Source: Eledone cirrhosa
Taxonomy: Eukaryota
Reading direction: 5' to 3'
NCBI GenBank assembly: GCA_964016885.1
Contig: OZ024742.1
Span: 169,942,001 to 170,006,000 of the forward strand
DNA length: 64,000 bases
Under the pieces are notes generated by a model. It had not been told where the DNA came from and did no database searches. It was given only the letters and a program-made list of their open reading frames with translations. This document shows positions 386-42,505 of the stretch, in pieces; the stretch's first letter is position 1; each line of letters opens with the position of its first letter. The position numbers and the translations under genes were made by a program.

Positions 386-2153
386 CATCATCATCATCAT
401 CATCGTTTAACGTCCATATTCCACGCTTGCATGGGTTTGGACGGGAGTTTTCCCACTTGAGGCAAGAGTGGTTGTCTTGCTCGCATAGGACTGTCTGGCT
501 GGTTTTCTACGGCTGGATGCCCTTCCTAACACCAACCACATTTACAGTGTGGAACTGGGAGGTTTTTACCGTGTTACCTACACAGCCACATTACAGCGTG
601 GACTGTGTGTTTTTTGTCGTGACACCTACACGACCTCATTTTGTTTCGGGCTGGATGTTGTGATACCAACATAACTTTACATTGAAAGGGGTGGTGTGGA
701 TGAGGTGGGGGTAGTGGGACGGGCGTGTATTTTGTTAGAGGTGCCTACTGACTGTAGTAAGTTTCACTTTGTACTTAGGTAAGGCAGGTCTTCTCTATTA
801 CTGTGTAGCGCCAAAGCTCTCGATCCAGTGACATTGTCTTGGAGAGGTGTAAGTGTGTGAGGTCGGAATTTATCAAGTCGTCCCAGGTTTTTCTGGGTCT
901 GCCTACTCCGTGGCTACCGTCTATTTTTATTGCCCTGCACTTTTTTATACAGCTGTCGTTTTTCATGCGCATCACGTGACCATACCAACGTAGTCTTCTC
1001 TCGAGTAAACAACATCTGATCCCTCTTATTTCTAATTTCTCCCTTAGTTCGTTTATGCTTTGCCGTTCACGTATATTACTATTACACATCCAGCGGAGCA
1101 TGCAAGCTTCATTTCTCTCCAGTCTGCGTATATCCTCTGCACACAATGCCCAGGTCTCACTGCCATGTAACATTGCTGTTCGTATGCAGGCAGCATACAG
1201 CCTGCCTTTCATTTTTAGAGAGAACCCTTTAGCGGCCAATAGTGGTATAAGCTCTCTGAACTTTTTCCATCCCGTTCTGACTCTAGTTACTGTACTTTCA
1301 GAGCACCCTCCCCCACTGCTGATTTTATCACCCAGGTAACGGAAGCTGTCCACTATTTCTATAGAACCATCTGTGCAATGGAATGAGTTAGTATTCTGTG
1401 GGCACTTGCTGCTACTTATTGCACCAGAGCACCGGCTACATATAAAATCTATATTCTTAGTTAGCTTACCTGTGATCCCACTACATCTTTTATGTACCCA
1501 TACTTTGCATTTGGGACATAAAATGGAGTTTCTACCTACTCCTTTCCTACACACTGAGCATGGCCATTTCCCAGATGGGACCGGTGCCCTATTTTCCTTC
1601 CTACAAACTAGAACTTTAGTCTTAGACAAGTTAACTTTAAGGCCTTTTGATTCTAGGCCATGCTTCCCTGTTTGGAATTTCTTCTCTAGTTCAGCCATTG
1701 ATTCAGCTATGAGCGTTAGATCATCTGCATATAGGAGTTCCCATGGGCAGCCAGTCTTGAACTCCTCTGTTATAGCCTGAAGGGCAATAATAAATAGTAG
1801 GGGGCTAAGGACGGAGCCCTGATGAACACCAATTTTTACGCTAAACTCTTCACTATATTCGTTGTTAATTCTAACCTTGCCGACTGTTTCTTTATACAAG
1901 GCTTGTATAGCTCTCACAAGCCATTCAGCAACACCTAGTTTTCTAAGGGCCCACCAGATAATCGAGCAGAGTTCTCTGTCAAAGGCTTTCTCCAAGTCAA
2001 CAAAAGCTAAGTATAGGGGTTTACTTTTAGCTAGGTACTTCTCCTGTAGTTGTCGTACAATGAAAAGAACGTCTGTTGTACTTTTTCCTGACACAAACCC
2101 GAACTGCATTTCGTCTAGATCAATTCGCTCTCTGATTAGTTGCGCTATTACTC
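386..2153 (-). mobile_element. RTE-clade LINE family A, 5'-truncated; RT ORF at 775-2109
   Basis: ORF has FVDLEKAFD, GVHQGSVLSPLLF, YADD, a C4HC3 finger and RRLRWYGHV. The (GAT)n tail is at 386-403. Same family as 61775-63514. Confidence 0.95.
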
Positions 2154-2575
2154 ATCTTTTTCCATTTCTCATCTTTTTCCATTTCTCATCTTTTTCCATT
2201 TCTCCGAGGGTTATAAACCCCACTATCAGGCTAGAAATGTCTTTAGTCTAAAATACGGTGAAAGCTTATAATTTCCAATTACTAATTTTCAAACTCGCGC
2301 ACCGTTTCAAAAACATACTTACATGTTTACATTTATAATTGCTTGTTTATCATTCACTTGCTAAGTTCGTAGCTTCTAATTCGAATGGAAGGAGACGGGT
2401 TGTGTATTGGTGTAATGGTAGCACAGTGGTCCGGATAACCAAAGATGTGGGTTGGACTCCCATGTACGGCAACACTCATCTTTTTCCATTTCTCCGAGGG
2501 TTATAAACCCCACTATCAGGCTAGAAATTTCTTTAGTCTAAAATATGGTGAAAGCTTATAATTTCTAATTTCTAA
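2150..2575 (+). mobile_element. Non-coding element with a 290-bp period in partial tandem, containing a tRNA-like segment
   Basis: Direct repeat 2184-2280 / 2474-2570. The 17-nt unit catctttttccatttct is tripled at the left junction. Related to 40385-40660 and 40880-40975. Confidence 0.7.
2399..2473 (+). ncRNA. tRNA-like cloverleaf (pseudo-tRNA or repeat head, not a canonical tRNA)
   Basis: D-stem GTGT/GCAC with A-box TGGTGTAATGG. Anticodon stem TGGT/ACCA. T-stem GTGGG/CCCAT with loop TTGGACT. No U33. Followed by T5. Confidence 0.65.
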
Positions 2576-2587
2576 TATATATATATC

Positions 2588-2670
2588 TCTCTAAGGCGGG
2601 TAAAATTCCGGAGATCCATGACGAGTTTTCTCCAGCGGTCTCTGTCCCTCATTATCGCTGCCATGTCTTG
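2588..2670 (-). mobile_element. Extreme 3' stub of an RTE/RTEX-like LINE
   Basis: Encodes [17 protein letters not shown], resembling the DR..WR C-terminus of RTE-type ORFs. Flanked by (TA)n. Confidence 0.55.
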
Positions 2671-5268
<2,598 letters not shown>

Positions 5269-6476
5269 AACTACACGGACTCGGCATAACTGGAAAAGTA
5301 GGTGAGTGGCTGCATGGCTTCCTAAGGGACAGAAGCCAGGCAGTCGCAGCAAATGGGGCCCTCTCGAGGGAAACACCGATAACAAGTGGGGTGCCTCAGG
5401 GGACAGTCCTGGGACCACTACTGTTTTTGGTGGCTCTCTCGGACATGCCCTCTGTGGTGCATGCAACAACATTGCTCACTAGCTATGCTGATGACACTAA
5501 GGTAGCACAGGCAATCAAAACCCGGCTGACGCTGCCCTCTTACAGCAGGATCTGGATGCCATATACAGATGGGCGGAAGAAAACAACATGCAGTTTAATG
5601 CTGGCAAATTCCAAGCCCTACAATACAAACCTGCAAACACAAACACAAATATAGCGGAACACAGCTACACAGGACCAGGAGGGACCGATATCCCTGTGTC
5701 AAAATCGATACGAGACCTGGGCATAGACATGAGCGATGATGCATCTTTTTCTTCACACATCATGAAGGTGGCGACAGCATGTAGACGATTCGCTGGCTGG
5801 ATCTTGAGGACTTTCCTTACAAGAGATCGAGACACCATGTTGACACTGTGGAGGACTTTTGTCCTAAGCCGCCTGGACTACTGCTCCCAGCTGTGGTCAC
5901 CCCATAGTGTCAAACTAACCACGGAGCTTGAGGCAATCCAGCGAAGCTACACCAAGAGGATTGCCAAGATGAGGGAGACAAGCTACTGGGAGAGGCTGAA
6001 GGAACTGAACCTCTACTCCTTGGAGCGAAGACGGGAGAGATACGCAGTGATCTACATGTGGAAAATCCTGGAGGGACTAGCACCAAACTTTGGCATTGGG
6101 AGCTGGACCAACCGTCGAACAGGACGTCACTGTGTGGTGCCAAAGGTCCCGTCTTCCACATCTAGAATAAGGAGCAGGTATTGCAATAGCCTGGGATTCA
6201 AGGGCCCTCAACTCTTCAACAGGCTGCCGAGGCATCTGCGAGACTTGCATGACGTGGAGGTGGATGTCTTTAAGAAACATCTCGACACCTTGTTATCCAG
6301 GATCCCGGATGAGCCCACAGCAAGACACGAGGGAAACCTAAGGGCAGCAGCAACAAACTCCCTCCTACACCAGTGGCCAACCTATACGGGCTGGAGATAA
6401 AATGTGTAGCAACAAGGGCGGTGCCCCAGCATGGCCTCAGCCGGATGGCTGAAACAGGTAAAAGAGTAAAAGAGTA

Positions 6477-6477
<1 letters not shown>
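5269..6477 (+). mobile_element. CR1-clade LINE, 5'-truncated, with a frameshift near 5520
   Basis: [13 protein letters not shown] and YADDTK, then SRLDYCSQLWSP and SLERRRERY in ORF 5588-6400. 3' (GTAAAAGA)n tail. Inserted in (TA)n. Confidence 0.92.
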
Positions 6478-6543
<66 letters not shown>

Positions 6544-6567
6544 ATGATATATATATATGATATGATA

Positions 6568-6610
<43 letters not shown>

Positions 6611-6620
6611 ATATATATAT

Positions 6621-6936
6621 ATAGAAAGATTTGAATGGATACAGTTTAGTTGAAAGGAATTTATTGACACGTGTTTCTATAACAGTTACATAACCTGAAA
6701 ACAGCTGCTATCTACAAAGTTTTAGTTATGCAGACATTCAATATTTCAATGTTATTATTTACTGTCATTTCATCAGAATTCTGATGAAATGACAGTAAAT
6801 AATAACATTGAAATATCGAATGTCTGCATAACTAAAACTTTGTAGATAGCAGCTGTTTTCAGGTTATGTAACTGTTATAGAAACACGTGTCAATAAATTC
6901 CTTTCAACTAAACTGTATCCATTCAAATCTTTCTAT
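6621..6936. repeat. Spacerless 316-bp palindrome (158-bp arms, one mismatch), part of a Penelope pLTR-like element extending to about 7048
   Basis: Axis at GAA|TTC 6778/6779. The arms are reverse complements. Confidence 0.95.
6776..6900 (+). ncRNA. Type I hammerhead ribozyme with long stem-loop II (mirror copy on the - strand at 6657-6781)
   Basis: CTGATGA 6781-6787. Stem II ATGACAGT/ACTGTTAT. GAAAC-ACGT-GTC 6880-6891 gives a palindromic stem III and a GUC site. Stem I is short (ATT/AAT). Confidence 0.7.
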
Positions 6937-7304
6937 TTTTCTCCGGATTACTTTTGGAACTACAACTGGAACCGTCGAGCAAACTCTACGTGAGCTGTCA
7001 ATCTACTGTGTGTAATATTTATATTACAATACAACGGAAAATACTGTATATATATATATATATATATATAGATATACATATATATATATACATATATATA
7101 TATATAGATAATTTAATATATCTACTAACATAAGCGCACAGATGTACGCCAATGCCAGCAAATACACAGGTTATGTCATAGTACCTAGGTGGTTCAATGC
7201 AGGAGGATGCAGAACAATAATATAACAGACGTAAAATAAGAAAATTAAAAAAATTAAAAAAAATTTTTTTTTTTTTAAATTTTAACCTACTTACTTAAAT
7301 TTTC

Positions 7305-7386
7305 ACTCCAACTAATTAGTTTCTGCAATGGGATAAAGACAGTTACGTAATCTAACTGTCGAGAATTCATTGCGTCATCGGGGAGT
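7305..7386 (-). ncRNA. Hammerhead ribozyme copy with a U4C core substitution
   Basis: Same as 7877-7958 but the core reads CCGATGA. Confidence 0.7.
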
Positions 7387-7876
7387 CTATTCTCAGCTGA
7401 GTCTCCAGGCAATGCGCGGACACCGGGGACTCATATAAAAATAATAATAATTCAGTAGATGGAACAGCTAGCGGGGACTGAATTCCATGCACTGAAATCC
7501 TTGCTGCCTCTGGTCAGATGGCCGATTCTAAAGAATCAATCACGTGACACAGAGGCTAGTCAGTAGGAATGGGATGGTAAGATGACAGACGCCTACTAAC
7601 ACCCCCCCCCCCCAAAACAAAAAAAATTTAAAAGTGGTTTTGGCAGGTTTGCTCGACAAATCAGTGATTTGGAGATAAATATAGATAATTTAATATATCT
7701 ACTAACATAAGCGCACAGATGTACGCCAATGCCAGCAAATACACAGGTTATGTCATAGTACCTAGGTGGTTCAATGCAGGAGGATGCAGAACAATAATAT
7801 AACAGACGTAAAATAAGAAAATTAAGAAAATTAAAAAAAAAATTTAAAAAAAAAATTTTAACTTACTTAAATTTTC

Positions 7877-7958
7877 ACTCCAACTAATTAGTTTCTGCAA
7901 TGGGATAAAGACAGTTACGTAATCTAACTGTCGAGAATTCATTGCGTCATCAGGGAGT
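7877..7958 (-). ncRNA. Type I hammerhead ribozyme, intact core
   Basis: Minus strand reads ACTCC-CTGATGA-C-GCAATG...CATTGC-A-GAAACTAATTAGT-T-GGAGT. Stem I is 5 bp, stem III is palindromic and the site is GUU. Confidence 0.85.
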
Positions 7959-7966
7959 CTATTCTC

Positions 7967-10315
<2,349 letters not shown>

Positions 10316-10515
10316 NNNNNNNNNNNNNNNNNNNNNNNNNNNNNNNNNNNNNNNNNNNNNNNNNNNNNNNNNNNNNNNNNNNNNNNNNNNNNNNNNNNNN
10401 NNNNNNNNNNNNNNNNNNNNNNNNNNNNNNNNNNNNNNNNNNNNNNNNNNNNNNNNNNNNNNNNNNNNNNNNNNNNNNNNNNNNNNNNNNNNNNNNNNNN
10501 NNNNNNNNNNNNNNN
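10316..10515. other. Assembly gap (200 N)
   Basis: Run of N. Confidence 0.99.
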
Positions 10516-10945
10516 GATCCATTTCTCAGCCAGGAAAATGCCTACTCCCCCTAACCCATCATCCTTACCTACCCAGAATAGCTTATAGCTAAGACGCTTG
10601 CCTACGACTAGTCTCGCAGAGGCACCCCTCCATCTCACCTCTTGCACGCAGCACACATCCACCTGCCTTCTCTCCAGCATCTCCGCTATTTCAGCAGACC
10701 TACCTCTGAGAGTGCCAACATTAAGTGTTGCAACTCTGAGATGCGACGTCTTCATATTTTTCTATGCTGTTTTGTTGCTGTGCTGATAAGCTTTTTGGCA
10801 TTGATACACTGGCTGGATGCCCTTCCTAACACCAGCGCCACTTTACAGCATGGACTGGGTGCTTTTATTTGTGCCACCAGCACTAGAGAGGATGTCTTAC
10901 TAGACTCAAGGGCCCTCTCTACCCCTCCATTTTACAGCATGGTCA
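10516..10945 (-). mobile_element. 5' end of RTE family B (APE endonuclease start plus 5' UTR), cut by the gap
   Basis: Essentially identical to 16505-16935. Encodes MKTSHLRVATLNVGTL...CCVQEVRW. Confidence 0.92.
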
Positions 10946-11445
10946 TTAAAAAAAAAAAAAAAAAAAAAAAAACTTATTGACACGACTCACACACTAATAC
11001 TCATGCATACAAACCACAACCACACATACCAACACTCATTCATGCATACAATCACGCACACCACTCACAAACATATATATATATACATATATTACCGACA
11101 GTACTGATGCAAAATCAAAATCAAAGTCAAAATCAAAATCAAAATCGTCAAAATCACTATCATGTCAACTGTTGACCTTTCCCAGTCCAGTTCGGCTTGT
11201 ATATAATAACAATAACAATAATAATTGTTTGTTTACGCTGGTAATGGCGGTGGTGGATGGTGTCAGTGTGGTGGTGGTGGATGGTATCAGCGTGGTGGTG
11301 GTGGTGGATGGTCAGTGATGGTGGTGGCAGTTGTTGGTGCTGGAGTTGTTATTGTAGTTGTTACTGTTGTTGTTGTCCTTCATTTCACTGCTGCTGTTGC
11401 TGCAGACAATGGTGTTGATGCTGTTATTGCTGTCGCATATATACA

Positions 11446-13677
<2,232 letters not shown>

Positions 13678-16600
13678 TCATCATCATCATCATTTTACGT
13701 CCGCTTTTCCCTGCTTGCAAGGGTGGGACGGGTCTTATTCAGCACAGCATCTCTCCATTCGTCACGATCCCTCGTCATCTCCACCGTGAGCTTCAATGAT
13801 CTGAGGTCTGTTCTCACCACCTCCGCCCATGTTTTTCGTGGTCTACCTCTACCACGTCTTCCTTCAACTGGCATTTCCTGGCACTTCTTCACCCATCGGT
13901 CATCCTCCATGCGCATCACATGTCCATACCACCTCAGTCTCCTCTCCCGTACACTACATTCTATCCTTCTCAGACACAGTTTCTCTCTCAACACATTTAT
14001 GCTGGGTCGTTCACGCACATTTACACTGCACATCCAACGGAGCATGCTTGCCTCATTTCTCTCCAGCCGTCGCATATCTTCTGCGGTAGCTGCCCATGTC
14101 TCACTACCATGCAGCATCGCGCTCCTCACACAGGCATCATACAACCGGCCTTTCGTACGCAGGGAGAAACCCTTCTTCGTCAACAGAGGAAGCAGCTCCC
14201 TAAACTTCTTCCAACCCGTCCTTATTCTAGATACTATGGCCTCGGAACACCCTCCTCCCATGCTAATCTGATCTCCTAGGTACCGGAAGCTATCCACCAC
14301 TTCTATAGCACCCGCCTGCATTTGAAAAATGTGTCTATCAATGCAACTTCTACTGTCTAATTTCCTTGTACATCTACTGCATACGTATTTCTCCCTACCT
14401 GTTAGTTTGCCTGCTATCCCGCTACATCTCTTGTGTACCCAGGACCTACATTGTGTGCATTTTATAGAATTATGCCAGTTCCTTTTCTGCATATCGAACA
14501 TGGCCATTTCCCTGACGGAATCAGGGTTTTGTCCTCTTTTCTACTCATCAACACTTTTGTCTTAGCTAGATTTACTCTCAGTCCTCTTGCTTCCAACTGC
14601 TGTTTCCATAGCCGGAATTTATTCTCTAGCTCCTCTACTGATTCTGCCATAAGAGCCAGATCGTCAGCATAGAGAAGTTCCCATGGACAGCCAGTCTTAA
14701 ACTCCTCTGTTATGGCTTGGAGGACTATAATGAACAAGAGCGGGCTGAGGACCGAACCCTGATGTACTCCTACTTGTATCTGGAATTCCTCACTAAACTC
14801 CATTCCTACCCTGACTTTACTGAGAGTACCTCTGTACAAAGTTTGCACTGTCCTTACAAGCCATTCCTCAACACCCAGCTTCCTTAGGAACCACCAGATG
14901 ACAGATCGGGGTACCCTATCAAAGGCCTTCTCTAGGTCAACAAAGGCTAAGTATAGTGGCTTATTCTTCTCTAAGAACCTCTCTTGCATTTGTCTCACCA
15001 AGAAGAGGGCATCTGTTGTACTCTTCCCAGGCACAAAACCAAACTGCATCTCATCTAGTTTGACCCTTTCTCTAATTAGTTGTGCTAAAATCCTTTCTGC
15101 CACTTTCATAACCTGATCTATCAGTTTTATACCCCTATAATTGCTCCTCTCCAAAGCATCCCCTTTACCTTTGTAGCAATTTATGAGAATACTGCTGCAC
15201 CAGTCTTTGGGTATGACACCACCATATATAGCCTGATTGATTATGCGTGCAACCAGTTTAGTGCCTACGTCCCCTGATGCCTTCAGCATCTCAGCAACTA
15301 TTCCCGATGGTCCGGCCGCCTTACCATTCTTCATTTCCCTAATTGCCTCTTGGACCCTATATTCGTCAATCTCAATAGCTGGTCCCTCTGTCGGATCTAC
15401 CAAGGGTAATTTTTCTCTCTCCCATTCGTTCTCCACATTCATCAGTCTCTCATAATGACATTTCCAGGCCTCCTTTTTCTGGTCATTCGTGACACTAAGT
15501 ACACCGGCATCATCCCGGACACATTTATCACCAACAACATCCTGATTTGCATTGACACACTGCCTTGCAATGTGATCTTCCCGTCGCAGAACATTGGCAA
15601 ACCTCCTACTCTCTGCCTCCCTGCGTGCTAAGTACACCTGGCGTCTAGCTTCTCTCTTAGTGGCTGTATATTCTTCCCTACTCCCACCCTTATTCCAAGC
15701 CTTCCATGCTAGTCTTTTGTCTCTAATAGCCTTATCTACACTGCTGTTCCACCACCAGGTCACTCTCTGTCTGGTTGGAGCTCTGCTCCAGCCACAGGTT
15801 TCATCAGTAGCCTTCAGCAAGTTGTCACGTAAGAACTTCCAGTTATTATCTATGTCATACGTCTCTAAATCGTCTTCTTTTTCGTCATATACATCTTGAA
15901 GGGCTTTCCTAAATTTGAATTTTAGTGAAAGGTCTTTTAGCTTCCAGACCTTTCTTCTCCACACCTTCCTATATGTCTCATTCCATCTCTTGCTTACTGA
16001 GATATCACTAACAACTAACCTATGCTGTGGGGTACATTCTTCCCCAGGGTATGCCTCGGTATTAGACACTATCTGCCTGTCCCGCTGCCTAACTAGCAGG
16101 AAGTCAATCTGGCTTATGTGCTCACCAGATTTGTAGGTTATTAGGTGATTGGCAGGTTTCTGGAAGTTTGTGTTGCAAATAGTCAATGTACTTGCATCAC
16201 AAAATTCAAGAAGTCTCACTCCTTCTTCATTTCTTGAACCGTAACCGTGCCCACCATGTACCCCAGTGTAACCATCCTGGAGCTGTCCAACATGACCATT
16301 GAAGTCTCCTGCTAGCATAACGATGTCTCCGTCCTCTGTCATTGTGGTTGTTTGCAAAAGTTGCTCATAAAAGCAGTCTTTCTCATCTTTGCCTAGGCCT
16401 GCTTGGGGAGCATAGACCGAGATGATTGTCAGTAGTCTCCTACCTACAACTAATCTAAGCTTAATTATTCGATTACTAACTCGAACTACCTCTATTGTCT
16501 TATTGATCCATTTCTCAGCCAGGAAAATGCCTACTCCCCCTAACCCATCATCCTTACCTACCCAGAATAGCTTATAGCTAAGACGCTTGCCTACGACTAG

Positions 16601-16935
16601 TCTCGCAGAGGCACCCCTCCATCTCACCTCTTGCACGCAGCACACATCCACCTGCCTTCTCTCCAGCATCTCCGCTATTTCAGCAGACCTACCTCTGAGA
16701 GTGCCAACATTAAGTGTTGCAACTCTGAGATGCGACGTCTTCATATTTTTCTATGCTGTTTTGTTGCTGTGCTGATAAGCTTTTTGGCATTGATACACTG
16801 GCTGGATGCCCTTCCTAACACCAGCGCCACTTTACAGCATGGACTGGGTGCTTTTATTTGTGCCACCAGCACTAGAGAGGATGTCTTACTAGACTCAAGG
16901 GCCCTCTCTACCCCTCCATTTTACAGCATGGTCAT
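13678..16935 (-). mobile_element. Near full-length RTE-clade LINE family B (APE endonuclease + RT), with a single frameshift near 14470
   Basis: ORF 14462-16744 has ATLNV, QEVR, SVYAPQ, GDFNGHVG, IDF, QHRLV and YADD. It continues in frame 13695-14507. (GAT)n tail. 1-nt deletion relative to the copy at 52316-52330. Confidence 0.96.
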
Positions 16936-17435
16936 TAAAAAAAAAAAAAAAAAAAAAAAAAAACTTATTGACACGACTCACACACTAATACTCATGCATA
17001 CAAACCACAACCACACATACCAACACTCATTCATGCATACAATCACGCACACCACTCACAAACATATATATATATACATATATTACCGACAGTACTGATG
17101 CAAAATCAAAATCAAAGTCAAAATCAAAATCAAAATCGTCAAAATCACTATCATGTCAACTGTTGACCTTTCCCAGTCCAGTTCGGCTTGTATATAATAA
17201 CAATAACAATAATAATTGTTTGTTTACGCTGGTAATGGCGGTGGTGGATGGTGTCAGTGTGGTGGTGGTGGATGGTATCAGCGTGGTGGTGGTGGATGGT
17301 CAGTGATGGTGGTGGCAGTTGTTGGTGCTGTAGTTGTTATTGTAGTTGTTACTGTTGTTGTTGTCCTTCATTTCACTGCTGCTGTTGCTGCAGACAATGG
17401 TGTTGATGCTGTTATTGCTGTCGCATATATACAAA

Positions 17436-17491
<56 letters not shown>

Positions 17492-27532: not shown

Positions 27533-27533
27533 G

Positions 27534-28745
27534 TCATCATCACCGTTTTACGTCCGTTCTTCCACGCTAGCATGGGTTAGACGGGTTGTCCTGTTGTGGG
27601 CAGTGTCTGGTCGGCTGACCATGCCTTGCTCATACAGGAACTGATCTGGCTTGATTTCTACAGCTGGATGCCCTTCCTAACACCAACCTCATTTACAGTG
27701 AGTGCTGGGTGCTTTTTCGTGGCGCCTACACGTCCACTTTACAGTGTGGGCTGGGTGCTTTTTTGCCGTGGCACCTCCACGACCACCTTGCGGTGGGGGG
27801 GGGGGCATATTGTTTATATGCTTCAGCATGTACCCATGGGAGGTCGGGTACCCTGTATTACTGCGTGACGCCAGAAGTCACGGTCGTGTGTCATTGACTT
27901 TGAGAGGTGTAGTTGGGTAAGGTCGGCTTTTATCACCTCATCCCAAGTCATCTTGGGTCTCCCCACTCCGCGGTTTCCATCAACTTCTAGTGCTCTGCAC
28001 CTTTTTATGCAGCTGTCATCCTTCATACGCATCACATGTCCATACCAGCGTAACCGCCTCTCCTGCACGCAGCATTTGATTCCTCTTATGCTCAGTCTCT
28101 CTCTCAATTCATTTATGCTTTGTCGTTCACGTATATTACTGTTACACATCCATCGGAGCATGCAGGCTTCGTTTCTCTCTAATCTACGTAAGTCTTCCAC
28201 CTTCAGCGCCCAGGTCTCACTACCATGCAACATCGCTGTTCGGATACACGCATCATACAGTCTGCCTTTCATTCTGAGGGAGAAGCCTTTTGCAGCTAGC
28301 AGTGGTAGTAGTTCCCTAAACTTCTTCCATCCCGTTCTTACCCTAGTTATTGTACTTTCTGAGCACCCACCTCCGTTGCTAATTCGGTCACCTAGGTAGC
28401 AGAAGCTGTCTACTGTTTCTACAGGGCCCTCCCAGAGATTGGTGGTACTTGTTTCCTGTGGCTGTTTGCTTGCTGTTTCAGCACAGCTGCTGCATGTGAA
28501 TCCTACATTCTTAATTAAGCTTCCTGAGATCCCGCTACATCTCTTGTGTACCCATTGTTTGCATTTGGGGCAAAGAATGGAGTTCCTACCTACACCTTTC
28601 CTACATACTGAGCAAGGCCATTTCCCTGAGGGGATCTGGGTTCTGTTTTCTCGTCTACTTATAAGGACCTTAGTCTTTGTCATGTTGACTTTGAGGCCCT
28701 TTCTCTCTAGTCCCTGCTTCCAGGTTTGGAATTTATTCTCTAATT
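27534..28745 (-). mobile_element. RTE-clade LINE family C, 5'-truncated (ORF 27823-28683)
   Basis: C4HC3 finger, YLGD, HGSETW and RRLRWYGHV. The 3' UTR has the AGGAAGGGCATCCAGC module. (GAT)n-like tail. Confidence 0.93.
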
Positions 28746-29202: not shown

Positions 29203-29235
<33 letters not shown>

Positions 29236-30098: not shown

Positions 30099-30109
30099 TC
30101 ATTTCATTT

Positions 30110-30960: not shown

Positions 30961-31549
30961 ATATTTATATTTATATATATATTTATATATATATATATAT
31001 TAATTTGTGTGGGTTTAAGCATTAAGGAATTCCACAAATTTCTCACAACTATTCAACTATTTTCTAAATTTATGTTTAATCAGTGTATGAATGTTAGGGT
31101 CATGTGGTGGTGGTGATGGGGGTGTGGCTGTGCTGACGTTATTGTTGTTGGTGTTGTTGGTGTTGATGGTTGTTGTGGGTGGATGAGTATTCTTTTGTGA
31201 ACACCTGAGTCATATATTTGTATCTAGTATTCTGATTGATGTTCAAACTGAAACATTTTTCTCATTCAGTAATAAAACATTCCAAAATGTTGGAGTTGTG
31301 TAAAGTATGTGTTGGAAAAAAAACAAACAAACAGCAATTGGTGTATCTGTGTGTTTTATTTTATAAATTTGTAGATTACATTTTTAGGAGTTATATATAT
31401 ATAATCATTGTTTAACGTCTGCTTCCCCTTTCTGTCTAGCTATCTATCTATCTTTCTATATATAATAAAAATAATAATATACAATATATATATATATAAG
31501 TAAAAAAAATAAAATAAGGGAAACCTTAGAACTTTTTCTACTTGTACAG

Positions 31550-31835
31550 TTTGTGGCAAAATCTGCCTGTCAGAGGATGGACTCAAATATTATTTTTATA
31601 AGAGCACACAATAGAGCATTTCCTACTGACTACAGAACATACCAACCAGTTTGCCCTTCTCAGTGTCACATATACCAAATCTGCAAATCTCAAGGAAGTC
31701 TAAAGAGACAGTTCAAAGATCATCAAGATCAGATAACACAGGCAGTTTAAACTGCTGCAAAACTAATGTGCAATTTATGTGGACGGCTTTTTAAAAATAT
31801 GTCTGGTGTAAAAGTCACATAAGCTCTTGTGCCAG
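31550..31835 (+). pseudogene. Degenerate LINE C-terminal fragment with C2H2-like zinc fingers
   Basis: CNLCGRLFKNMSGVKSH at about 31769-31820, and an upstream decayed CHI.QICKSQGSLKR. Confidence 0.4.
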
Positions 31836-31847
31836 GACCAATCATCA

Positions 31848-32753
31848 TCTCTCTATATATAAAATTGTTTGTCTGTCTGTTCCTATGCATTGTCAAACGG
31901 CTGGACCAAATCAAATCAAATTTTACAAGGTAGGGAATTTCAACATGAAATTTTTATTTTCATTTGGATTCAAATAATATAATATTTTAACTAAAATAAC
32001 CTTTCTATAGTGAACTATAGTAAACCACCATGACTACGACGAGTCACATTTTGTATGAGTATGTATGTGTATGTGAGTGTGTGTGTGTTCGCGAGTTCGT
32101 TACTATGTAAGTTGCATACACATTATCTTCACACAGAGACTATTAAACACACACACATCTACGCATACAGATACATATGTCATGACAGACAGGTGTGCGT
32201 GAATATATGTCTGTGTCTGCCTGTCTTAGTATATGTATGTGAGTGTATATGTGTATGTGTGATAATTTTTATTTTCATTTGCATTAAAACAATAGAAAAC
32301 AACACACCAATGTCACATTTTGTATATGTATGTGTCTGTGAGTGTATGTGCACGCATTCATTAGGTACGTGATTAAATTGACACACACATCTACACATAT
32401 GAAGCAACTGACCAAAAATGAGGTGAAAAGCTATGCGCGTGTCTGCATGAATGTATGTCTGTGTGTGTCTGTCTTAGTATATGTATATGAGAGTGTGTGA
32501 GTGTGTAGCAGCAATTTATTCATTTGGGCACCAACAAAAAATGACACAATGAATATTGTTTACCCTAAGGTGCTTCAAGATTGACAGATTTTCATTTCTA
32601 AATTCTATTATCATTACAATTTTGATATTTTTAAAATAAAATATAGATATTTTGAAATAATTATGAGAAAAAAACAACATATCTTCATATTTATTGTTTA
32701 CTAATCTGAATAAGAACAGCTGTAATCCGGGCAACACCGGGTAATTCAGCTAG
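31848..32753 (+). mobile_element. Non-autonomous Helitron-like element
   Basis: 5' TC after A and (GTCT)n near the 5' end. 3' hairpin ccgggcaacaccggg then CTAG followed by T. Confidence 0.75.
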
Positions 32754-32804
32754 TGTACACTAAAGTGATCAGTCTTTGTATTGAGTAGACAACCTATATA
32801 TATA

Positions 32805-32962
32805 TAGGCACTGGCATGGCTGTGTAGTTAAGAAAAATATTTCACAACCATTTGGTTTTGGGTTTGATCCTACTGTGCAGCACCTTCAGCATGTGTCTTT
32901 TACTATAAACTTTCACTAAGTGCATTTATTAAATAGAAACTGTGAAGAAGCCTGTTGTCTGT
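32805..32962 (+). mobile_element. tRNA-derived SINE (related copies about 41010-41160 -, 45435-45550 +, 59880-59985 -)
   Basis: A-box-like tggctgtgtagttaag, B-box-like gggtttgatcc and CORE-like caccttcagcatgtgtctt. Confidence 0.7.
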
Positions 32963-32963
32963 A

Positions 32964-33240
32964 TATATCTTTTATGGACAGATGCCCTTCTTCGTATGAA
33001 GTCTTCTAGTCAGAGATGTGGAATATCTATTTTAAACTCGATATCTTTTATGGACAGATGTTCTTCCTCGTATCAAGTCTTTTAGTTATATCTTACGACA
33101 CACAGGGATATGGTATATCTATTCGAAACTAGATATCTTTTATGGACAGATGCCCTTCTTTGTATGAAGTTTTCTAGTCATATCTTATGACACACAGGAA
33201 TATAGTATGTCTATTCTAAACTAGATGCCTTTTACAGAAT
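32964..33240. repeat. About 3 diverged tandem copies of a ~80-93-bp unit
   Basis: tatcttttatggacagatg...tatctatt recurs at about 32966, 33043 and 33134. Confidence 0.8.
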
Positions 33241-33339
33241 AGAAAAATGAGGCACACGTTGAATAAAAAAAGAAAAAGGTCCTAAATATAGGTATGTCTG
33301 AAAATAGGCAAGATAGTCACAGCTTAAACACCTGAATAT

Positions 33340-33727
33340 CTGTGGTGAATTGGCAGAGTTGTTAGTGCCAAACAGTCGAATTTGTTCAGGGTCTTAACTT
33401 TCTGAGTTCAAATCCTGCCAAGGACCGCTTTGCTTATTTTTCTCTCATCTTTCTAGATTCAATAAAATAAAGTACCAGTGAAGTCCTGGCACCAATATAG
33501 TTGACTGTTCCTCATTGTTGCCAGCATTGCCTTGTGCCTAAATAATTGTTTCTAATTTTGGCACAAGACCAGCAATTCCTCAGTTCATTACTGGTACTTT
33601 ATTTTATCGACCCCGTAAGGATGAAAGGCAAAGTTAACTTCGGCGAGATTTGAACTCGGACTGTAAAGGGACATAACTATGCTGGAAAGCGTGGCGTCCG
33701 ACCCTCTACCGATACGGCCAATCCACT
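33340..33727. mobile_element. Tail-to-tail pair of tRNA-SINEs with a Meta-like core. Further copies at about 34128-34345, 47930-48440, 49272-49415, 51035-51180, 53695-53920, 58440-58700 and 59145-59335.
   Basis: B-box gagttcaaatcc followed by ctttgcctttcatcc..ggggtcgataaaataaagtaccagt and tail gccttgtgccaaaattagaaac. Confidence 0.8.
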
Positions 33728-34532
33728 AATATTAAGTTATTAATGTTGAAGTAAAAATTTTCAGATTTTCAACCTAATTTCCTGTTTTCTATGACACAAA
33801 ATCGGACTTATTTACTAATGTAACTGAATATTCTTTGTTCTATTAGTCATAGTACGTGGCTACTATCTAGTCAATGAGAGATCTGGGCAGTGTTGTTACT
33901 CAACTAACATGTTCTTTAAATGAATCCTTTGTTTGGTCTTTGAGTTTCTGGAAGCAATACAAGATACCTGAAAAATTAACGTTTTCATTTCCATATTTCT
34001 AATAAAATACTCTGTGTTTGGATTAATTGTATGTTTGTATGGATCCGTAACTCCTGTTATAGTTATGGGGGCGCCATAGTGACATACAGCGTGTCTTGGT
34101 CATTTAAAACGGAATGGAGCCAATCTGCTCTCCAGGTCAATTTCTTCCATAGAAGGAGAGAGAATGATAGAGAGGAAGTGAGAAAGAGATATAGAGGAAG
34201 AATCAACCCCAATACTGGACTGGTACTTTCTTTTATCAACCTCAAAATGCTGAAAATTGACCTCAGCAGGATTTGAACTCGGAGTTAAGAGCCGGAATGA
34301 ATACCACAAAGCATTTTATGTTGTTCTAATGACTGCCAAATTGTGACCAATAAACAACAGCATTATAAGTATCAAATTGTCAGTCTTTCACAAGTTCATA
34401 CTGTTGTCTATTTGAAAGTGCCAACAATTTACTTTGGTGATCATATATCTAATAGAAAAAAAACCGTTCCATCATAATTTTATGTAAGAACATTTATGTT
34501 CCAAGCACCAGCTTGATAATGAAGAAATTAGT

Positions 34533-37500
34533 TATTGTATATACTCGTATATAAGCTGAGAAATATATAACAAAATATTGATGGTAAAATCGAGGTTGGC
34601 TTATATTAAGGTCAATATTTTGCCGGTTTTCCGCAACTTCAAAATTCTACATAAATGAGGCACCGAGATATTTTTGCTTTGGAGGTGAATATTACACTGC
34701 TTTCACTTTCATGGTGAATATTACACTGGTTACACTTTGGAGGTGAATATTACACTGGTTACACTTTGGAGGTGAATATTACACTGCTTTCACTTTAATG
34801 GTGAATATTACACTGGTTACACTTTGGAGGTGAATATTACACTGGTTACACTTTGGTGGTGAATATTACACTGGTTACACTTTGGTGGTGAATATTACAC
34901 TGGTTACACTTTGGTGGTGAATATTACACTGGTTACACTTTGAAGGTGAATATTACACTGGTTACACTTTGGTGGTGAATATTACACTGGTTACACTTTG
35001 GTGGTGAATATTACACTGGTTACACTTTGGTGGTGAATATTACACTGGTTACACTTTGGTGGTGAATATTACACTGGTTTCACTTTCATGGTGAATATTA
35101 CACTGGTTACACTTTGGTGGTGAATATTACACTGGTTACACTTTCATGGTGAATATTACACTGGTTACACTTTGGTGGTGAATATTACACTCGTTTCACT
35201 TTCATGGTGAATATTACACTGGTTACACTTTGGTGGTGAATATTACACTGGTTACACTTTGAAGGTGAATATTACACTGGTTACACTTTGGTGGTGAATA
35301 TTACACTGGTTACACTTCAGTGGTGAATATTACACTGGTTACACTTTGGTGGTGAATATTACACTGGTTTCACTTTCATGGTGAATATTACACTGGTTAC
35401 ACTTTGGTGGTGAATATTACACTGGTTACACTTTGAAGGTGAATATTACACTGGTTACACTTTGGTGGTGAATATTACACTGGTTACACTTTGGTGGTGA
35501 ATATTACACTGGTTACACTTTGGTGGTGAATATTACACTGGTTACACTTTGGTGGTGAATATTACACTGGTTTCACTTTGGTGGTGAATATTACACTGGT
35601 TTCACTTTCATGGTGAATATTACACTGGTTACACTTTGGTGGTGAATATTACACTGGTTTCACTTTCATGGTGAATATTACACTGGTTACACTTTGGTGG
35701 TGAATATTACACTGGTTACACTTTGGAGGTGAATATTACACTGGTTACACTTTGGTGGTGAATATTACACTGGTTTCACTTTGGTGGTGAATATTACACT
35801 GGTTTCACTTTCATGGTGAATATTACACTGGTTACACTTTGGTGGTGAATATTACACTGGTTACACTTTGGAGGTGAATATTACACTGGTTACACTTTGG
35901 TGGTGAATATTACACTGGTTACACTTTGGTGGTGAATATTACACTGGTTTCACTTTCATGGTGAATATTACACTGGTTACACTTTGGAGGTGAATATTAC
36001 ACTGGTTACACTTTGGTGGTGAATATTACACTGGTTACACTTTGGTGGTGAATATTACACTGGTTTCACTTTCATGGTGAATATTACACTGGTTACACTT
36101 TGGAGGTGAATATTACACTGGTTACACTTTGGTGGTGAATATTACACTGGTTACACTTTGGTGGTGAATATTACACTGGTTTCACTTTCATGGTGAATAT
36201 TACACTGGTTACACTTTGGAGGTGAATATTACACTGGTTACACTTTGGTGGTGAATATTACACTGGTTACACTTTGGTGGTGAATATTACACTGGTTTCA
36301 CTTTCATGGTGAATATTACACTGGTTACACTTTGGAGGTGAATATTACACTGGTTTCACTTTCATGGTGAATATTACACTGGTTACACTTTGGTGGTGAA
36401 TATTACACTGGTTTCACTTTCATGGTGAATATTACACTGGTTACACTTTGGAGGTGAATATTACACTGGTTACACTTTGGTGGTGAATATTACACTGGTT
36501 ACACTTTGGTGGTGAATATTACACTGGTTACACTTTGGTGGTGAATATTACACTGGTTACACTTTGAAGGTGAATATTACACTGGTTACACTTTGGTGGT
36601 GAATATTACACTGGTTACACTTTGGTGGTGAATATTACACTGGTTACACTTTGGTGGTGAATATTACACTGGTTACACTTTGGTGGTGAATATTACACTG
36701 GTTTCACTTTCATGGTGAATATTACACTGGTTACACTTTGGTGGTGAATATTACACTGGTTACACTTTGGTGGTGAATATTACACTGGTTACACTTTGGT
36801 GGTGAATATTACACTGGTTTCACTTTCATGGTGAATATTACACTGGTTTCACTTTCATGGTGAATATTACACTGGTTACACTTTGGTGGTGAATATTACA
36901 CTGGTTACACTTTCATGGTGAATATTACACTGGTTACACTTTGGTGGTGAATATTACACTGGTTTCACTTTCATGGTGAATATTACACTGGTTACACTTT
37001 GGTGGTGAATATTACACTGGTTACACTTTGAAGGTGAATATTACACTGGTTACACTTTGGTGGTGAATATTACACTGGTTACACTTTCATGGTGAATATT
37101 ACACTGGTTACACTTTGGTGGTGAATATTACACTGGTTTCACTTTCATGGTGAATATTACACTGGTTACACTTTGGTGGTGAATATTACACTGGTTACAC
37201 TTTGAAGGTGAATATTACACTGGTTACACTTTGGTGGTGAATATTACACTGGTTACACTTTGGTGGTGAATATTACACTGGTTACACTTTGGTGGTGAAT
37301 ATTACACTGGTTACACTTTGGTGGTGAATATTACACTGGTTTCACTTTGGTGGTGAATATTACACTGGTTTCACTTTCATGGTGAATATTACACTGGTTA
37401 CACTTTGGTGGTGAATATTACACTGGTTTCACTTTGGAGGTGAATATTACACTGGTTACACTTTGGTGGTGAATATTACACTGGTTTCACTTTGGTGGTG

Positions 37501-39386
37501 AATATTACACTGGTTTCACTTTCATGGTGAATATTACACTGGTTACACTTTGGTGGTGAATATTACACTGGTTACACTTTGGAGGTGAATATTACACTGG
37601 TTACACTTTGGTGGTGAATATTACACTGGTTACACTTTGGTGGTGAATATTACACTGGTTTCACTTTCATGGTGAATATTACACTGGTTACACTTTGGAG
37701 GTGAATATTACACTGGTTACACTTTGGTGGTGAATATTACACTGGTTACACTTTGGTGGTGAATATTACACTGGTTTCACTTTCATGGTGAATATTACAC
37801 TGGTTACACTTTGGAGGTGAATATTACACTGGTTACACTTTGGTGGTGAATATTACACTGGTTTCACTTTCATGGTGAATATTACACTGGTTACACTTTG
37901 GTGGTGAATATTACACTGGTTACACTTTGGAGGTGAATATTACACTGGTTTCACTTTCATGGTGAATATTACACTGGTTACACTTTGGTGGTGAATATTA
38001 CACTGGTTTCACTTTCATGGTGAATATTACACTGGTTACACTTTGGTGGTGAATATTACACTGGTTACACTTTCATGGTGAATATTACACTGGTTACACT
38101 TTGGTGGTGAATATTACACTGGTTTCACTTTGGTGGTGAATATTACACTGGTTTCACTTTGGTGGTGAATATTACACTGGTTACACTTTCATGGTGAATA
38201 TTACACTGGTTACACTTTGGTGGTGAATATTACACTGGTTTCACTTTGGTGGTGAATATTACACTGGTTACACTTTCATGGTGAATATTACACTGGTTAC
38301 ACTTTCATGGTGAATATTACACTGGTTACACTTTCATGGTGAATATTACACTGGTTACACTTTGGTGGTGAATATTACACTGGTTACACTTTGGTGGTGA
38401 ATATTACACTGGTTACACTTTCATGGTGAATATTACACTGGTTACACTTTGGTGGTGAATATTACACTGGTTACACTTTGGTGGTGAATATTACACTGGT
38501 TACACTTTCATGGTGAATATTACACTGGTTACACTTTGGTGGTGAATATTACACTGGTTACACTTTGGAGGTGAATATTACACTGGTTACACTTTGGAGG
38601 TGAATATTACACTGGTTACACTTTGGAGGTGAATATTACACTGGTTTCACTTTGAAGGTGAATATTACACTGGTTACACTTTGGAGGTGAATATTACACT
38701 GTTTCACTTTGGAGGTGAATATTATACTGGTTATACTTTGGTGGTGAATATTACACTGGTTACACTTTGGTGGTGAATATTACACTGGTTACACTTTGGA
38801 GGTGAATATTACACTGGTTACACTTTGGTGGTGAATATTACACTGGTTACACTTTGGAGGTGAATATTACACTGGTTACACTTTGGAGGTGAATATTACA
38901 CTGGTTTCACTTTGGAGGTGAATATTATACTGGTTACACTTTCATGGTGAATATTACACTGGTTACACTTTGGAGGTGAATATTACACTGGTTTCACTTT
39001 GGAGGTGAATATTACACTGGTTTCACTTTGGAGGTGAATATTGTATCGGTTTCACTTTGGAGGTGAATATTGTATCGGTTTCACTTTTGTTGTGAAATTC
39101 ATATTTCATAATGTTTTTGAGGTGTTTTGGATGAATATAGCCTTCAAAATGGTTGGTAAAAAATCATTATGCAATGGAGTTGTGAAGTAAAAACTAAACT
39201 CTAAATGACACTTAAAACATATTAAATATCAATACAGTAAATTTCATAAATATATTCTCCACTCTTGAGAATTTCAGAATTGTGCCATCTAAACATGGTG
39301 TTGATTAGCTGCCTCGGATTATATATTTGGTTTGGATTTTTGCCTATTTCTAGACAAAATTGGCTTATATTCAAGTATATATGATA
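34533..39386. mobile_element. Tc2/pogo-type non-autonomous DNA transposon hosting the 29-bp array
   Basis: Decayed TIRs tattgtatatactcgtatataagc / gcttatattcaagtatatatgata. The right part matches 44640-44887. Confidence 0.65.
34677..39095. repeat. 29-bp minisatellite, about 150 copies
   Basis: Unit GGTGAATATTACACTGGTT(A/T)CACTTT(GGT/GGA/CAT/GAA). Confidence 0.98.
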
Positions 39387-40384
39387 TATTACTAAATCTC
39401 TCCAAATTCTTAACTATTTTAAAATTGATTTGAAAATTATAGGCTGTGGGTCTTTCTTTTATTGGAAATCTGGTAATAGAAAGGTTAAATAAATAAATGC
39501 CAGTAATATATTAGGTCTGTTTTGGTTGATAAATTTGTGTCATTGTGGCAAATGTTTAGAAATCATTAATGTATTTGCTGACAATAAAATGACAGAACCT
39601 TTGTGACAGTAAATAATTAATAAGAGTTGGATGTCAGCTATTTAGAAGCCATTAGTGTAATATCATTAAATGAAAATAGGGGAGAGGTTGACCATCAGGT
39701 GACCCCAAACACGAAGGAACTATTTATAGATGAAATAATTGATAAAACTATTATATAGGATTGCATTATACCCAGATGGTGGGTGCTCTGGGATTGTAAT
39801 TTGTGTGTGTTTTCAGTTGTGTAAACAGTGCTAATGTATCAACAAAACAACCTGAACAATCTGCTATTGACTGGAACATTAACCCTGTTGTTACCAAACT
39901 ATCTGAAACTATCCCTGTTTTTCTGAATACAAAAGCTGTTAATTCCAAAATGTTTATATTTATCTAAAGACCTTCCATCATAATTTTATGTATAAATCTT
40001 TAGATTATGTTCCAAACACCAGCTTAAAAATGAGAAAGTTAGTCATATTATTAAATATTTACTACCAGAGAGGAATAGTGAAAAGTGCTTACACTTAATT
40101 CTTTCCTCAACAAAGGCTTCTAATTACCCCCCCCCCCTCACTGTATTTATATTTTTTTTATTTACTGGTTTCAGTCATTCAACTGTGGTCATTCTGGGGC
40201 ATCACCCTGAAGGGATTTAGTCAATCATATTGACCCCACTACTTATTTTTTTTCAAATCTGGTACGTATTTTACAGGACATAAACACAGACTCACACAAA
40301 TATAAACATAAACACACACACACACATGCACGCACGCGCGATCACATTTAGAAGACAGCATTGAAATTTGAAAATGAAATTGAA

Positions 40385-40660
40385 TCAGTAGCTTTCACCA
40401 TACCTTATGTTTGACTATAGAAAATAGTTTAATAACAGGACATATAAGCCCCCTGAACAGAGAAAAATGGGCATTAGCATTTAACAGAGAAAAGTGAGTG
40501 GGCAAATTAGTATAATTGGCTAGCACAGTTATAATGAAAATAAGAGGTGTGGGTTCATTTCCCACGTGTGCTGAATCCCATTTTTCCATTCATGCTATAC
40601 ACCCTATTATTTGACTACTTTCTATAGTCAAACATATGGAGAAGCTATAATTCAATTGGA
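40385..40660 (+). mobile_element. tRNA-like-containing element with an inverted copy of its 3' motif on the left
   Basis: tRNA-like fold at 40501-40572. 40385-40471 is a diverged reverse complement of 40577-40657. Motif shared with 2191-2280. Confidence 0.65.
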
Positions 40661-42505
40661 CTTTTGCGTGCGTGTGTGTGTTGATGACGGTAAAGTAGCA
40701 ATTATAATCTCGCACACATTACTCATTCAATGAATTATGGAATGAACTTGTTAGGAACAAAACCTGTCTCAGAGTACTTACCATGTGTATGTTAGTAATG
40801 TGGCATGGTGCTATTAAGTTAGACATGACTTGAGCCAATACTGGCCGAAACCTATCAAAGTTATGCGAATGACAGATTTCTGCAGTTTCTGTCCATTCAA
40901 GGTGCTTATACACCCTGTTATTAGATTACGTTCTGTAGTCAAATGGATGGCAAAAGCTACTAATTCAATTGAATTTTCGTGTGTGTGTGTGTACACGCAC
41001 GCACGCGCGCGCGTCTGCAGTTTCTGTCTACCAAATTCCACTTATGATGCATTGGTCAACCCAAGGCTATAGTAGAAGACACTTGCTCAAGGTGCCACAT
41101 CATGGAAGTAAAACCAGAAGCATGTGGTTGCAAAACAAACGGCTTAACCATGCAGTCATGTATACTCTGTATATATTTTATATAAAACTAAACAATAGCT
41201 AAAGGGCACGGAGGATATATTGTATCTCCAGAAATGGAATTAAATAAGATGGTGACGGTGACAATAATGATGGCGACAGTGATAATTATGATGATGACTA
41301 TGGTCTTAAGTACATCTACCGTTTTGTCATTTAAATATAATTGTTTTAGAATTCATTATCTGATGATCATTTCACGTTGAAGGGAGTTTTATATCTCATG
41401 AGATTGTTTGAAATATTGATAAAAAATGTATAATTACTTCAAATAGTACATAAAACTCTGCTGGTTATAAAATTTGTATTTTTTCTTCTTCCTTTCAACT
41501 CTTAAAATTATAACAGAAGTTTGTTACATTTTGAGATCTAGCACTTGATATGTAATAAATATTTAACTTGATTTTCTGCTTCAGTTTGTAATTAGCATTG
41601 TTTTTTTTAGTTATGCTAAGTTGAACTCTAATCTGCTAAATTAGGTTAAAGCTAAATTTTCCTCTGTTTTGTTTGTAAATAATAAATAATTGTCACACAT
41701 GGATCATTTCATCACTTATATTTGCTTGAGAAAAAAAACAAACCCTCCCATCAAAATATACATCTAAAACAATGTAGAATGCTTTATTGGAATTATCTCA
41801 GTGGATTTGTTTAAAATATTAAAACAGCTGTCGTTAATCAACTTTTAATTAGGCATCTGATCGGAATGTTAACAGTGTTAGAACAATTTTATCTATTTGA
41901 CATTGTACAAAATTGTGTCCCACCCATGCTAACATGGAATACCGATGTAAAATGATGATCATCATGATAACTTGGGTTGACTTTGACTCCAAGTCTCACC
42001 ACTGATATGTGTGTATATCTGTCCCGTAACTTAACAGTTCAACAAAAAGAGATTGATAAAATAAGTATCAGTTGAAAAAATAACTACTAGGGTACTAGGG
42101 TCGATATGATAGACTAAATTAAAGTGGTACTTCATCATGGCTGCCGTCTAATGCCTGAAACCAGTAAAAGAATACACACATACACACACACACACATTCA
42201 CATATGTATAAGGTGATTCATGTCTCTTTTTCTTTTTTTTTCTGCATCCTATTCACTCAGTCTAGCATTCCATAGAAGAATTTAAGTTTGAAATATCAAA
42301 GAGATTTCTATTTCCATTTCCAGAGTGTCAACCTAATAACTACACTGCTTCACCTTGTCTTTTACTATGTTGTTCTTTCTTAATCATAAATGTTGAACAC
42401 ACGCACACATAATAAAAAGAAAAGAGATTGTTCTACATATTCAACTTCAGTTTATTACATCACACATGTTGTGTACATTTCATAAGCATTCAAATGTCAT
42501 TATGT

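Follow-up and report, generated by a model that had tools for sequence, protein, structure and literature searches.

Animal non-LTR (long terminal repeat) retrozymes are non-coding elements organized in tandem units of 170-400 bases with a low GC content, and it has been proposed that they are mobilised by Penelope-like elements, PLEs (PMC7229834; bioRxiv 10.64898/2026.07.22.740005). In the PLEs themselves, the tail was described as the stretch between two internal start sites of the reverse transcriptase (RT), both target strands being cut and extended, and hammerhead cleavage was found to be dispensable for insertion in vitro (PMC11167929). Among the published Chlamys elements, those that are non-autonomous usually have 3' sequence in common with an autonomous partner (PMC8557442). 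In a window of 64,000 nucleotides of Eledone cirrhosa (NCBI GenBank assembly GCA_964016885.1, contig OZ024742.1, positions 169,942,001 to 170,006,000 of the forward strand; window coordinates refer to this whole stretch), we analyzed a non-coding repeat with a unit of approximately 250-290 bases, which combines a tRNA look-alike with a conserved hairpin and is present in thousands of copies in the 3.0-Gb genome. The family is likely a ribozyme-free, tRNA-bearing, retrozyme-like variant of the non-autonomous PLEs.

The family agrees with the non-LTR retrozymes (Cervera and de la Pena 2020; Li, Clavereau and Pollet 2026) in its tandem unit size, its low GC content and its proposed mobilisation by PLEs, but it has no type I hammerhead and for this reason cannot be counted among them; it carries a tRNA look-alike and a different hairpin, and its arrays are short, the sampled loci having no more than about 2.8 units per arm. 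With Chlamys MRC1 (Craig et al. 2021, PMC8557442) it shares the organization of a hammerhead-less non-autonomous PLE, with pseudo-LTRs and head-to-tail insertions, whereas no partner with shared 3' sequence was found here among the sampled loci, and a tRNA domain is not mentioned for MRC1 in the part of that paper used here. The autonomous PLEs (Poseidon PAc, PMC11167929; Neptune, Hydra and Naiad, PMC8557442) have the same two internal RT starts, single tail, inverted 5'-truncated arm and AT/TA targets; unlike them, the family has neither an open reading frame (ORF) nor a hammerhead, and its tail measures 42-65 bases instead of the published 30-40. In the open-access literature searched, we found no account of PLE passengers that bear a tRNA and lack a hammerhead (a scope that does not take in the Dfam and Repbase libraries or the octopus paper of 1994 on short interspersed nuclear elements, SINEs), and three diagnostic words had no match in the O. 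vulgaris annotation supplement (5,371 characters). That 1994 paper, by Ohshima and Okada, is said to describe the octopus tRNA-derived SINEs OK, OR1 and OR2. The tRNA domain with its A and B boxes is common to the family, to tRNA-derived SINEs and to the Helenus/Ajax non-autonomous LTR elements (PMC10886601), but here the tRNA lies in the middle of the unit and is followed by a T5 run, and the ends are of the PLE type instead of the tail of a long interspersed nuclear element (LINE) or LTRs.

Each unit consists, in this order, of a tail segment, a leader, the tRNA look-alike, a trailer with the T5 run and the hairpin motif. We consider the family to be large because the exact full-motif pattern matched 4,555 times in the genome and 0 times in the control, an earlier motif pattern search of the same genome having given 4,415 matches against 1. 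A covariance model trained on 26 genomic copies, three of the five window copies among them, recovered exactly the five window copies, at 58-80 bits, with the next window match at 20.7 bits; all five motif instances listed in an initial annotation of this window are real. Subfamily A1 is young, its copies differing from their majority at 2.6% of the sites (511/19,732), and lineage B is old (70-83% identity to the window copy among the matches listed); 218 aligned pieces revealed the additional subfamilies A2-A4 and B2-B3. The unit measures approximately 290 bases in A1, 260-270 in A2 and 256 in B. The copy depth of the family was high in three of four sequencing contig runs (their kind is unrecorded), with a single contig in the fourth. 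Apart from the pattern itself, none of the stretches covered by a metagenome scan (at least 117) fits the profile of the element, the best E being 0.028.

The Penelope-like insertion layout and mobilisation proposed in the initial annotation are well supported by the insertion anatomy across the genome, which is the same as the PLE layout given in PMC8557442. For the end statistics of A1, duplicate loci were removed and arms of at least 90% identity were used. Among 68 A1 3' ends, 28 coincide with the tail's end (64 bases) and 20 with that of the unit, the remaining ones being mostly a few bases away from these two fixed ends or shortened, and at least three TA units follow directly after 59 of the 68. 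Variable 5' truncation, partial tandems and an inverted 5'-truncated left arm are seen across insertions. Where an A1 insertion has two arms (inverted left, forward right), the tail is on exactly one arm in 26 of 27 cases (binomial p 2e-7; the 'no tail' class includes shortened ends), one insertion having it on neither arm and none on both. Such a one-tail rule is described, in the same paper, as absent from the target-primed reverse transcription (TPRT) of non-LTR elements. TA repeats flank 67 A-type insertions on both sides in 36 cases, on one side in 24 and on neither in 7, and a non-repetitive duplication of at least 9 bases was found in only 3 of these 67, none of them convincing. The same two-end design, with the first end 13-18 bases after GAAAGCT and the second 42-65 bases further, can be observed in A2 and B, and a two-end design also characterizes the autonomous Poseidon-, Neptune- and Hydra-type families of this genome. 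The family thus displays the 5' truncation with pseudo-LTR, the inverted arm, the two fixed 3' ends, the single tail and the AT/TA targets of non-autonomous PLEs; of the features of tRNA-derived SINEs it has the A/B-box region, and neither a terminator-less tRNA at the 5' end nor a LINE tail with target site duplications (TSDs).

The tRNA look-alike was scored by the Rfam tRNA model at 28.8 bits in the first domain of the window (cut-off 29) and at 44.3 bits in two A3 copies; ARAGORN called no tRNA in the window. In 26 copies from all lineages, 85% of the 541 cells of the tRNA fold are paired, compared with 27-60% in slid structures, and double changes occur in 7 of 21 pairs, three in the anticodon stem and four in the acceptor stem. 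Shuffled alignments miss the observed paired fraction and covariation score, but reach the pair count in 381 of 500 cases, and the covariation cells reflect mainly one split, that between A and B. The covarying tRNA-like fold of the initial annotation is borne out at this level, between lineages. The anticodon loop is constant (seven bases, C first and A last) and the anticodon varies among subfamilies; as the anticodon drifts while the fold is kept, shape rather than decoding is conserved. The A and B boxes are intact in the subfamily majorities, and a T5-T6 run lies 8-12 bases past the acceptor stem in both lineages. A T run ends an RNA polymerase III (Pol III) transcript, and such a transcript would therefore normally end before the motif and the start sites. 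Although the boxes are intact, the Pol III link suggested previously is doubtful as the source of the template, in view of this run and of the arms, described below, that copy past the T-stem. The tRNA sits in the middle of the unit, with approximately 90-120 bases of copied unit upstream. In the A lineage, leader and trailer show complementarity along 17 bases, which comprise T5; covariation of this helix was not supported (58% paired, slid control 60%) in a mixed alignment in which many rows lack the leader.

A hotspot of arm starts was identified within the tRNA look-alike. In loci chosen by the motif pattern only, 23 of 74 arms start 5-7 bases 3' of the T-loop A58, and among the 51 arms that reach tRNA positions 62-66, 23 stop there and 28 copy past, some of them for more than two units. 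These stops are distributed over single-armed insertions, with 8 arms, and over two-armed ones whose junctions are symmetric (9) or asymmetric (6); 19 of the 52 insertions contain them. Microhomology alone is a conceivable source of the hotspot, although elsewhere in the unit AT-rich sites gather no more than 4 ends per position. Methylated A58 blocks RTs. The simplest reading of the hotspot is a stall of the RT at the folded T-arm or at methylated A58, followed by joining at the nearest AT-compatible palindromic bases. The tRNA look-alike was likely folded in the template, as close to half of the cDNAs arriving at the T-stem end at it.

In the predicted fold of the motif, a small GGG/CCC hairpin is followed by a long hairpin with bulges and by GAAAGCT, which stays unpaired; single-copy z-scores lie between -0.75 and -2.6 on the sense strand. 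The small hairpin had been missed in the initial annotation. In 26 copies, 82.7% of 416 cells are paired, compared with 32-41% in slid controls, the values being 90% and 93% in two parts of the long hairpin and 64% in the small hairpin, whose register differs between A and B. The unpaired TTAT and GAAAGCT are conserved across lineages. Compensation can be observed at the level of lineages, the outer stem passing from A-T over G-T to G-C and the inner stem of A3 from G-C to A-T, and the covariation of the motif rests on two or three such events. Part of the outer-stem covariation first read from the window copies is CpG decay (the family majority reads ACGGTG, not ATGGTG), and the supposed covarying variant GATGGCA is a decayed B form. 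We consider the motif fold to be plausible and conserved, not statistically proven: its covariation is too thin for a claim of formal significance.

From the observed anatomy, copy counts, ends, hotspot and lineage-level compensation, we infer an enzyme, a template and roles for the motif and the tRNA look-alike. With a probability of roughly 0.7, the family is a non-autonomous element moved by a PLE protein from read-through RNA, in which the hairpin is the likely loading signal and the tRNA mimic a host-factor handle that replaces the hammerhead. Because thousands of copies show the PLE insertion pattern, copying in trans by a PLE reverse transcriptase/endonuclease is likely. The enzyme, supplied in trans, would bind near the hairpin motif to a read-through RNA spanning more than one unit, its endonuclease would nick both strands of a TA-rich target, and the RT would start inside the RNA at the two sites located 13-18 bases past GAAAGCT and 42-65 bases further, one per strand; one start site per strand would in turn produce the inverted arm and a tail on one arm only. 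The folded tRNA look-alike in the template would halt many cDNAs at the T-stem, and it may borrow the host tRNA machinery in the hammerhead's place, either as a landing site for Pol III factors or as a signal for processing or stability. Recruitment of the RT by the motif, a putative role, would fit the position of the latter, just before the first fixed end.

Several results weigh against this proposal. In the motif, double changes were found in 4 of 16 pairs, a count that 148 of 500 shuffles also reach, RNAalifold retains the inner hairpin only, and the outer pair does not covary within the old B copies (Fisher p 0.30), where CpG decay blurs it. When the motif model was applied to 99 + 61 PLE-bearing or candidate loci, only a nested copy (at L353, after a TA run) and two family copies were detected. 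The search for the GIY-YIG family gave 10,597 candidates, of which only 150 were scored, and 50 loci were read. Moreover, only a 9-base match to the end of the Hydra-type elements was seen, whereas the published Chlamys passengers usually share 3' sequence with their partner (PMC8557442). Microhomology may help to explain the T-stem hotspot, the site being palindromic and AT-compatible, and loci L001-L030 are the best matches and not a random sample. Finally, the test of a circular against a linear multimeric template was weak: 22 variants are common to the arms, 8 are rank-specific and come from 3 of 27 insertions (a single deletion accounts for the surroundings of 5 of them), 7 occur in all ranks, and divergence is 4.4% between adjacent units and 3.4% between arms.

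The young PLE families with long open frames in this genome are of the Neptune, Poseidon and Hydra types. The first look gave 37,508 Poseidon-type and 82,250 Hydra-type candidates, the best copies being 94-99% protein-identical, and the PLE proteins of the genome resemble published Octopus families; the Hydra-type label was assigned by eye against Hydra-1_Obim. All autonomous PLE families that were read end in their own hammerhead variants, without the motif, and no autonomous RT element ending in the motif was found in the sampled PLE loci. A tblastn search with six PLE proteins against 170 motif loci gave no partner; the closest case, L017, was rejected as an insertion into a decayed element. 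The pattern of a hammerhead plus GGYGAAAGCT had 972 matches against 155 in the control, with no partner among the first 100 matches listed, in which a Hydra variant, family junctions and unrelated repeats recur. In a DNA search with the motif only, the tRNA part was attached in 15 of 29 new loci.

Some additional observations concern the autonomous elements. A Hydra-type PLE (L373-L408) has an ORF of 713 residues, without a Pfam match at E 0.01, and a tail of approximately 88 bases. Non-canonical hammerhead cores were noted in young autonomous PLE families (L121-L140, L343-L408), namely TTGAAAA and TTGATAA in the Neptune type and CAGAAGA in the Hydra type, alongside CTGAAGA in the Poseidon type, and standard hammerhead descriptors would miss several of the core variants of this genome. 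In the window, positions 60014-61349 on the minus strand contain a decayed Hydra-type PLE end with a hammerhead variant (TTGAGAA core, GC-rich stem II, GAAA) and a TA-repeat junction, without the motif; it is probably the 'Penelope-type element' to which the initial annotation referred.

Among the alternatives, the one that survives best, although we consider it unlikely, is that the motif is a decayed or remodelled hammerhead, i.e. the end of a retrozyme or PLE that lost the first core and kept stem II and GAAA-GC-UH as a protein-binding remnant. The GAAA-GC-UH end alone does resemble the second core found in this genome's PLE hammerheads, GAAAGCT followed by A/T corresponding to that core and the palindromic short stem III. 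Additionally, GGTGAAAGC is common to the motif and the young Hydra-type end, CTGAGGG is found 56 bases upstream in A2-A4, and the cited literature gives 'half-core' cases for Naiads (PMC8557442) and the above-mentioned insertion in vitro without hammerhead activity (PMC11167929). However, the sense strand has no first core of the CUGANGA type, as the initial annotation had correctly noted, and a functional hammerhead was rejected on this ground. The would-be stem I pairs in A1 alone and not in A2 or B, the older B is no nearer to a hammerhead than A, the autonomous hammerheads lie 48-125 bases before the first end and the motif 13-18, and, by our estimate, a match of 9 bases is close to what chance would give with about nine families. 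As regards mobility, a decayed hammerhead is compatible with a PLE-moved element.

It is improbable that the partner is a Naiad, a hammerhead-less PLE that targets TA, with the motif as its recognition signal. Naiads are described as lacking hammerheads and preferring (TA)n (PMC8557442), and the 3' untranslated regions of the published Naiad_Obim and Naiad_Ovul contain, by eye, a stretch with a CCC..GTGAAAGCT spacing like that of the motif. This stretch is antisense, though, and its exact pattern has no match in the genome; the Naiads of the published Octopus lineage are present here as decayed remnants (141 candidates, the best other copy 68% identical and with stops), which makes this Naiad lineage too old for A1, and no motif was found beside 32 Naiad loci. 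In Naiad_Obim, the motif-like antisense stretch occurs twice, resembling both ends of the motif.

Even less probable is that the motif represents an undescribed ribozyme class which, by self-cleavage, would do the work of a hammerhead and divide multimeric RNA into units. The fold and the unpaired TTAT and GAAAGCT are conserved across lineages, and the motif is near the 3' end, where PLE ribozymes are placed, in a tandem unit of retrozyme size. Against self-cleavage, which the initial annotation had considered possible, the ribozymes of Rfam 15 gave no match up to E 10 in window positions 2140-2600 and in a genomic copy (L212, 1440-2060), no pseudoknot partner is conserved across lineages, the folding z-scores of single copies are modest, no cluster of 5' ends lies inside the motif as cleavage would give, and copies of more than two units exist. 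Readings by eye as twister, HDV-like or pistol ribozymes were dropped, owing to the lack of a conserved pseudoknot partner and of an Rfam match. A scan of the whole window with Rfam at E 5 gave 433 matches, the top 150 listed being all microsatellite or hairpin noise.

Least probable of all, and largely refuted by the one-tail count and the fixed ends, is the reading of the family as a tRNA-derived SINE of the ordinary kind, which Pol III would transcribe and a LINE (RTE or CR1/L2 in the window) would mobilise, with chance tandems and inversions: the A and B boxes are intact, young LINEs are present and a 15-base duplication surrounds motif copy 5, but the tRNA is preceded by the copied upstream bases, T5 precedes the 3' end, there is neither poly(A) nor an own simple-repeat tail, convincing TSDs and a fixed 5' end were not found, and one tail per insertion is, as cited, described as absent from non-LTR TPRT. 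The family does not correspond to the ordinary SINE with TSDs that the initial annotation had named as a refutation.

Returning to the non-autonomous element moved by a PLE protein, a tentative extension would make it the Penelope counterpart of SINEs, in which a folded, host-handled tRNA mimic has taken the place of the hammerhead, while the hairpin acts by itself as a loading signal that requires no sequence identity with an autonomous partner. The tRNA mimic might then carry T-loop modifications, undergo trimming by RNase P or Z, or bind Pol III factors, and the hairpin would direct the telomerase-related PLE RT to the two internal start sites.

In the window, the span 2150..40975 that had been presented as one element family does contain one repeat family, in the form of unrelated insertions of a young A and an old B type and not as one 39-kb element. 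The young A1 insertion begins on the plus strand at a 5' junction (2151-2201) that contains a 17-base piece of the tRNA trailer three times in tandem and adjoins the 5'-truncated end of an RTE-type LINE on the minus strand (RT family match, ORF 778-2151). Motif copy 1 (2194-2282, 76.8 bits with the covariance model) belongs to a 5'-truncated partial unit equivalent to a pseudo-LTR. The following unit starts with the 64-base tail segment, ending near 2350, and the leader (2287-2400), and continues with the tRNA-like domain (2401-2471; Rfam tRNA match at 2404-2468), in which the A box is at 2408-2418 and the B box, with one private substitution, at 2450-2460. The trailer (2474-2490) has its T5 run at 2481-2485 and is predicted from sequence and fold to pair with the leader (2384-2400 with 2474-2490), without support from covariation. 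Motif copy 2 (2484-2576; 79.9 bits at 2484-2572), with the GGG/CCC hairpin, the long bulged hairpin and GAAAGCT, runs up to the first fixed 3' end at 2576, the position shared by 20 of the 68 ends, and TA repeats follow.

The old B insertion has an inverted left arm on the minus strand (40340-40480, left limit approximate) with trailer, motif copy 3 (40374-40464) and a decayed tail. Its right arm, on the plus strand, contains the leader and tRNA-like domain (40481-40572, the domain at 40501-40572) and motif copy 4 (40582-40661, 58.5 bits) after a T5 run (40581-40585), without a tail and followed by GT-type repeats. Both tRNA-like domains seen in the initial annotation are present, but the T5 runs start 8-10 bases past the acceptor stem and not directly after it. 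Motif copy 5 (40889-40977, plus strand; 72.6 bits at 40889-40974) stands apart as a 5'-truncated B insertion of its own, with a direct repeat of 15 bases on its two sides (40879-40893 and 41014-41028). Between copies 4 and 5, a hammerhead-like remnant (40820-40860, plus strand; short stem, GAAAC) is perhaps a decayed retrozyme. In the genome, a short TA-flanked repeat recurs beside family copies (flanks of L019, L039, L070, L089, L090 and L414); some of its copies form a long perfect hairpin, and it is probably a further non-autonomous PLE family.

Other features of the window include copies of RTE-type LINEs at 778-2151, 13695-16750, 27823-28745 and 62107-63542 on the minus strand and at 52066-53099, whose ORFs have a PHD-like Cys-rich insert inside the RT region (PHD match with E 2e-6 in the 778-2151 copy). 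A 29-base minisatellite of approximately 150 copies occupies 34532-39071, and a second, conventional-looking tRNA-headed SINE at 61335-61600 (plus strand) is unrelated to the family studied here. Positions 10516-11449 and 16505-17437 form a 99.7% identical duplication that adjoins an assembly gap and is possibly an assembly artefact.

This locus contributes the count of tails in two-armed insertions, compensatory changes between lineages in which the anticodon drifts, a hotspot of stops at the T-stem and a 3' hairpin that is conserved. The RTs of PLEs are the closest relatives of telomerase, their choice of RNA and internal start are barely known, and the role of the hammerhead is open; a natural hammerhead-less substrate of 290 bases, with two base-precise starts and lineage variants that keep the fold, offers a compact test object. 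In the stop hotspot at a tRNA position, the genome has kept a trace of how the template RNA was structured or modified. Furthermore, there may be PLE passengers among the cephalopod repeats classified as 'unclassified SINE', of which one study gives 893 recently active families; the anatomy of their ends can test this.

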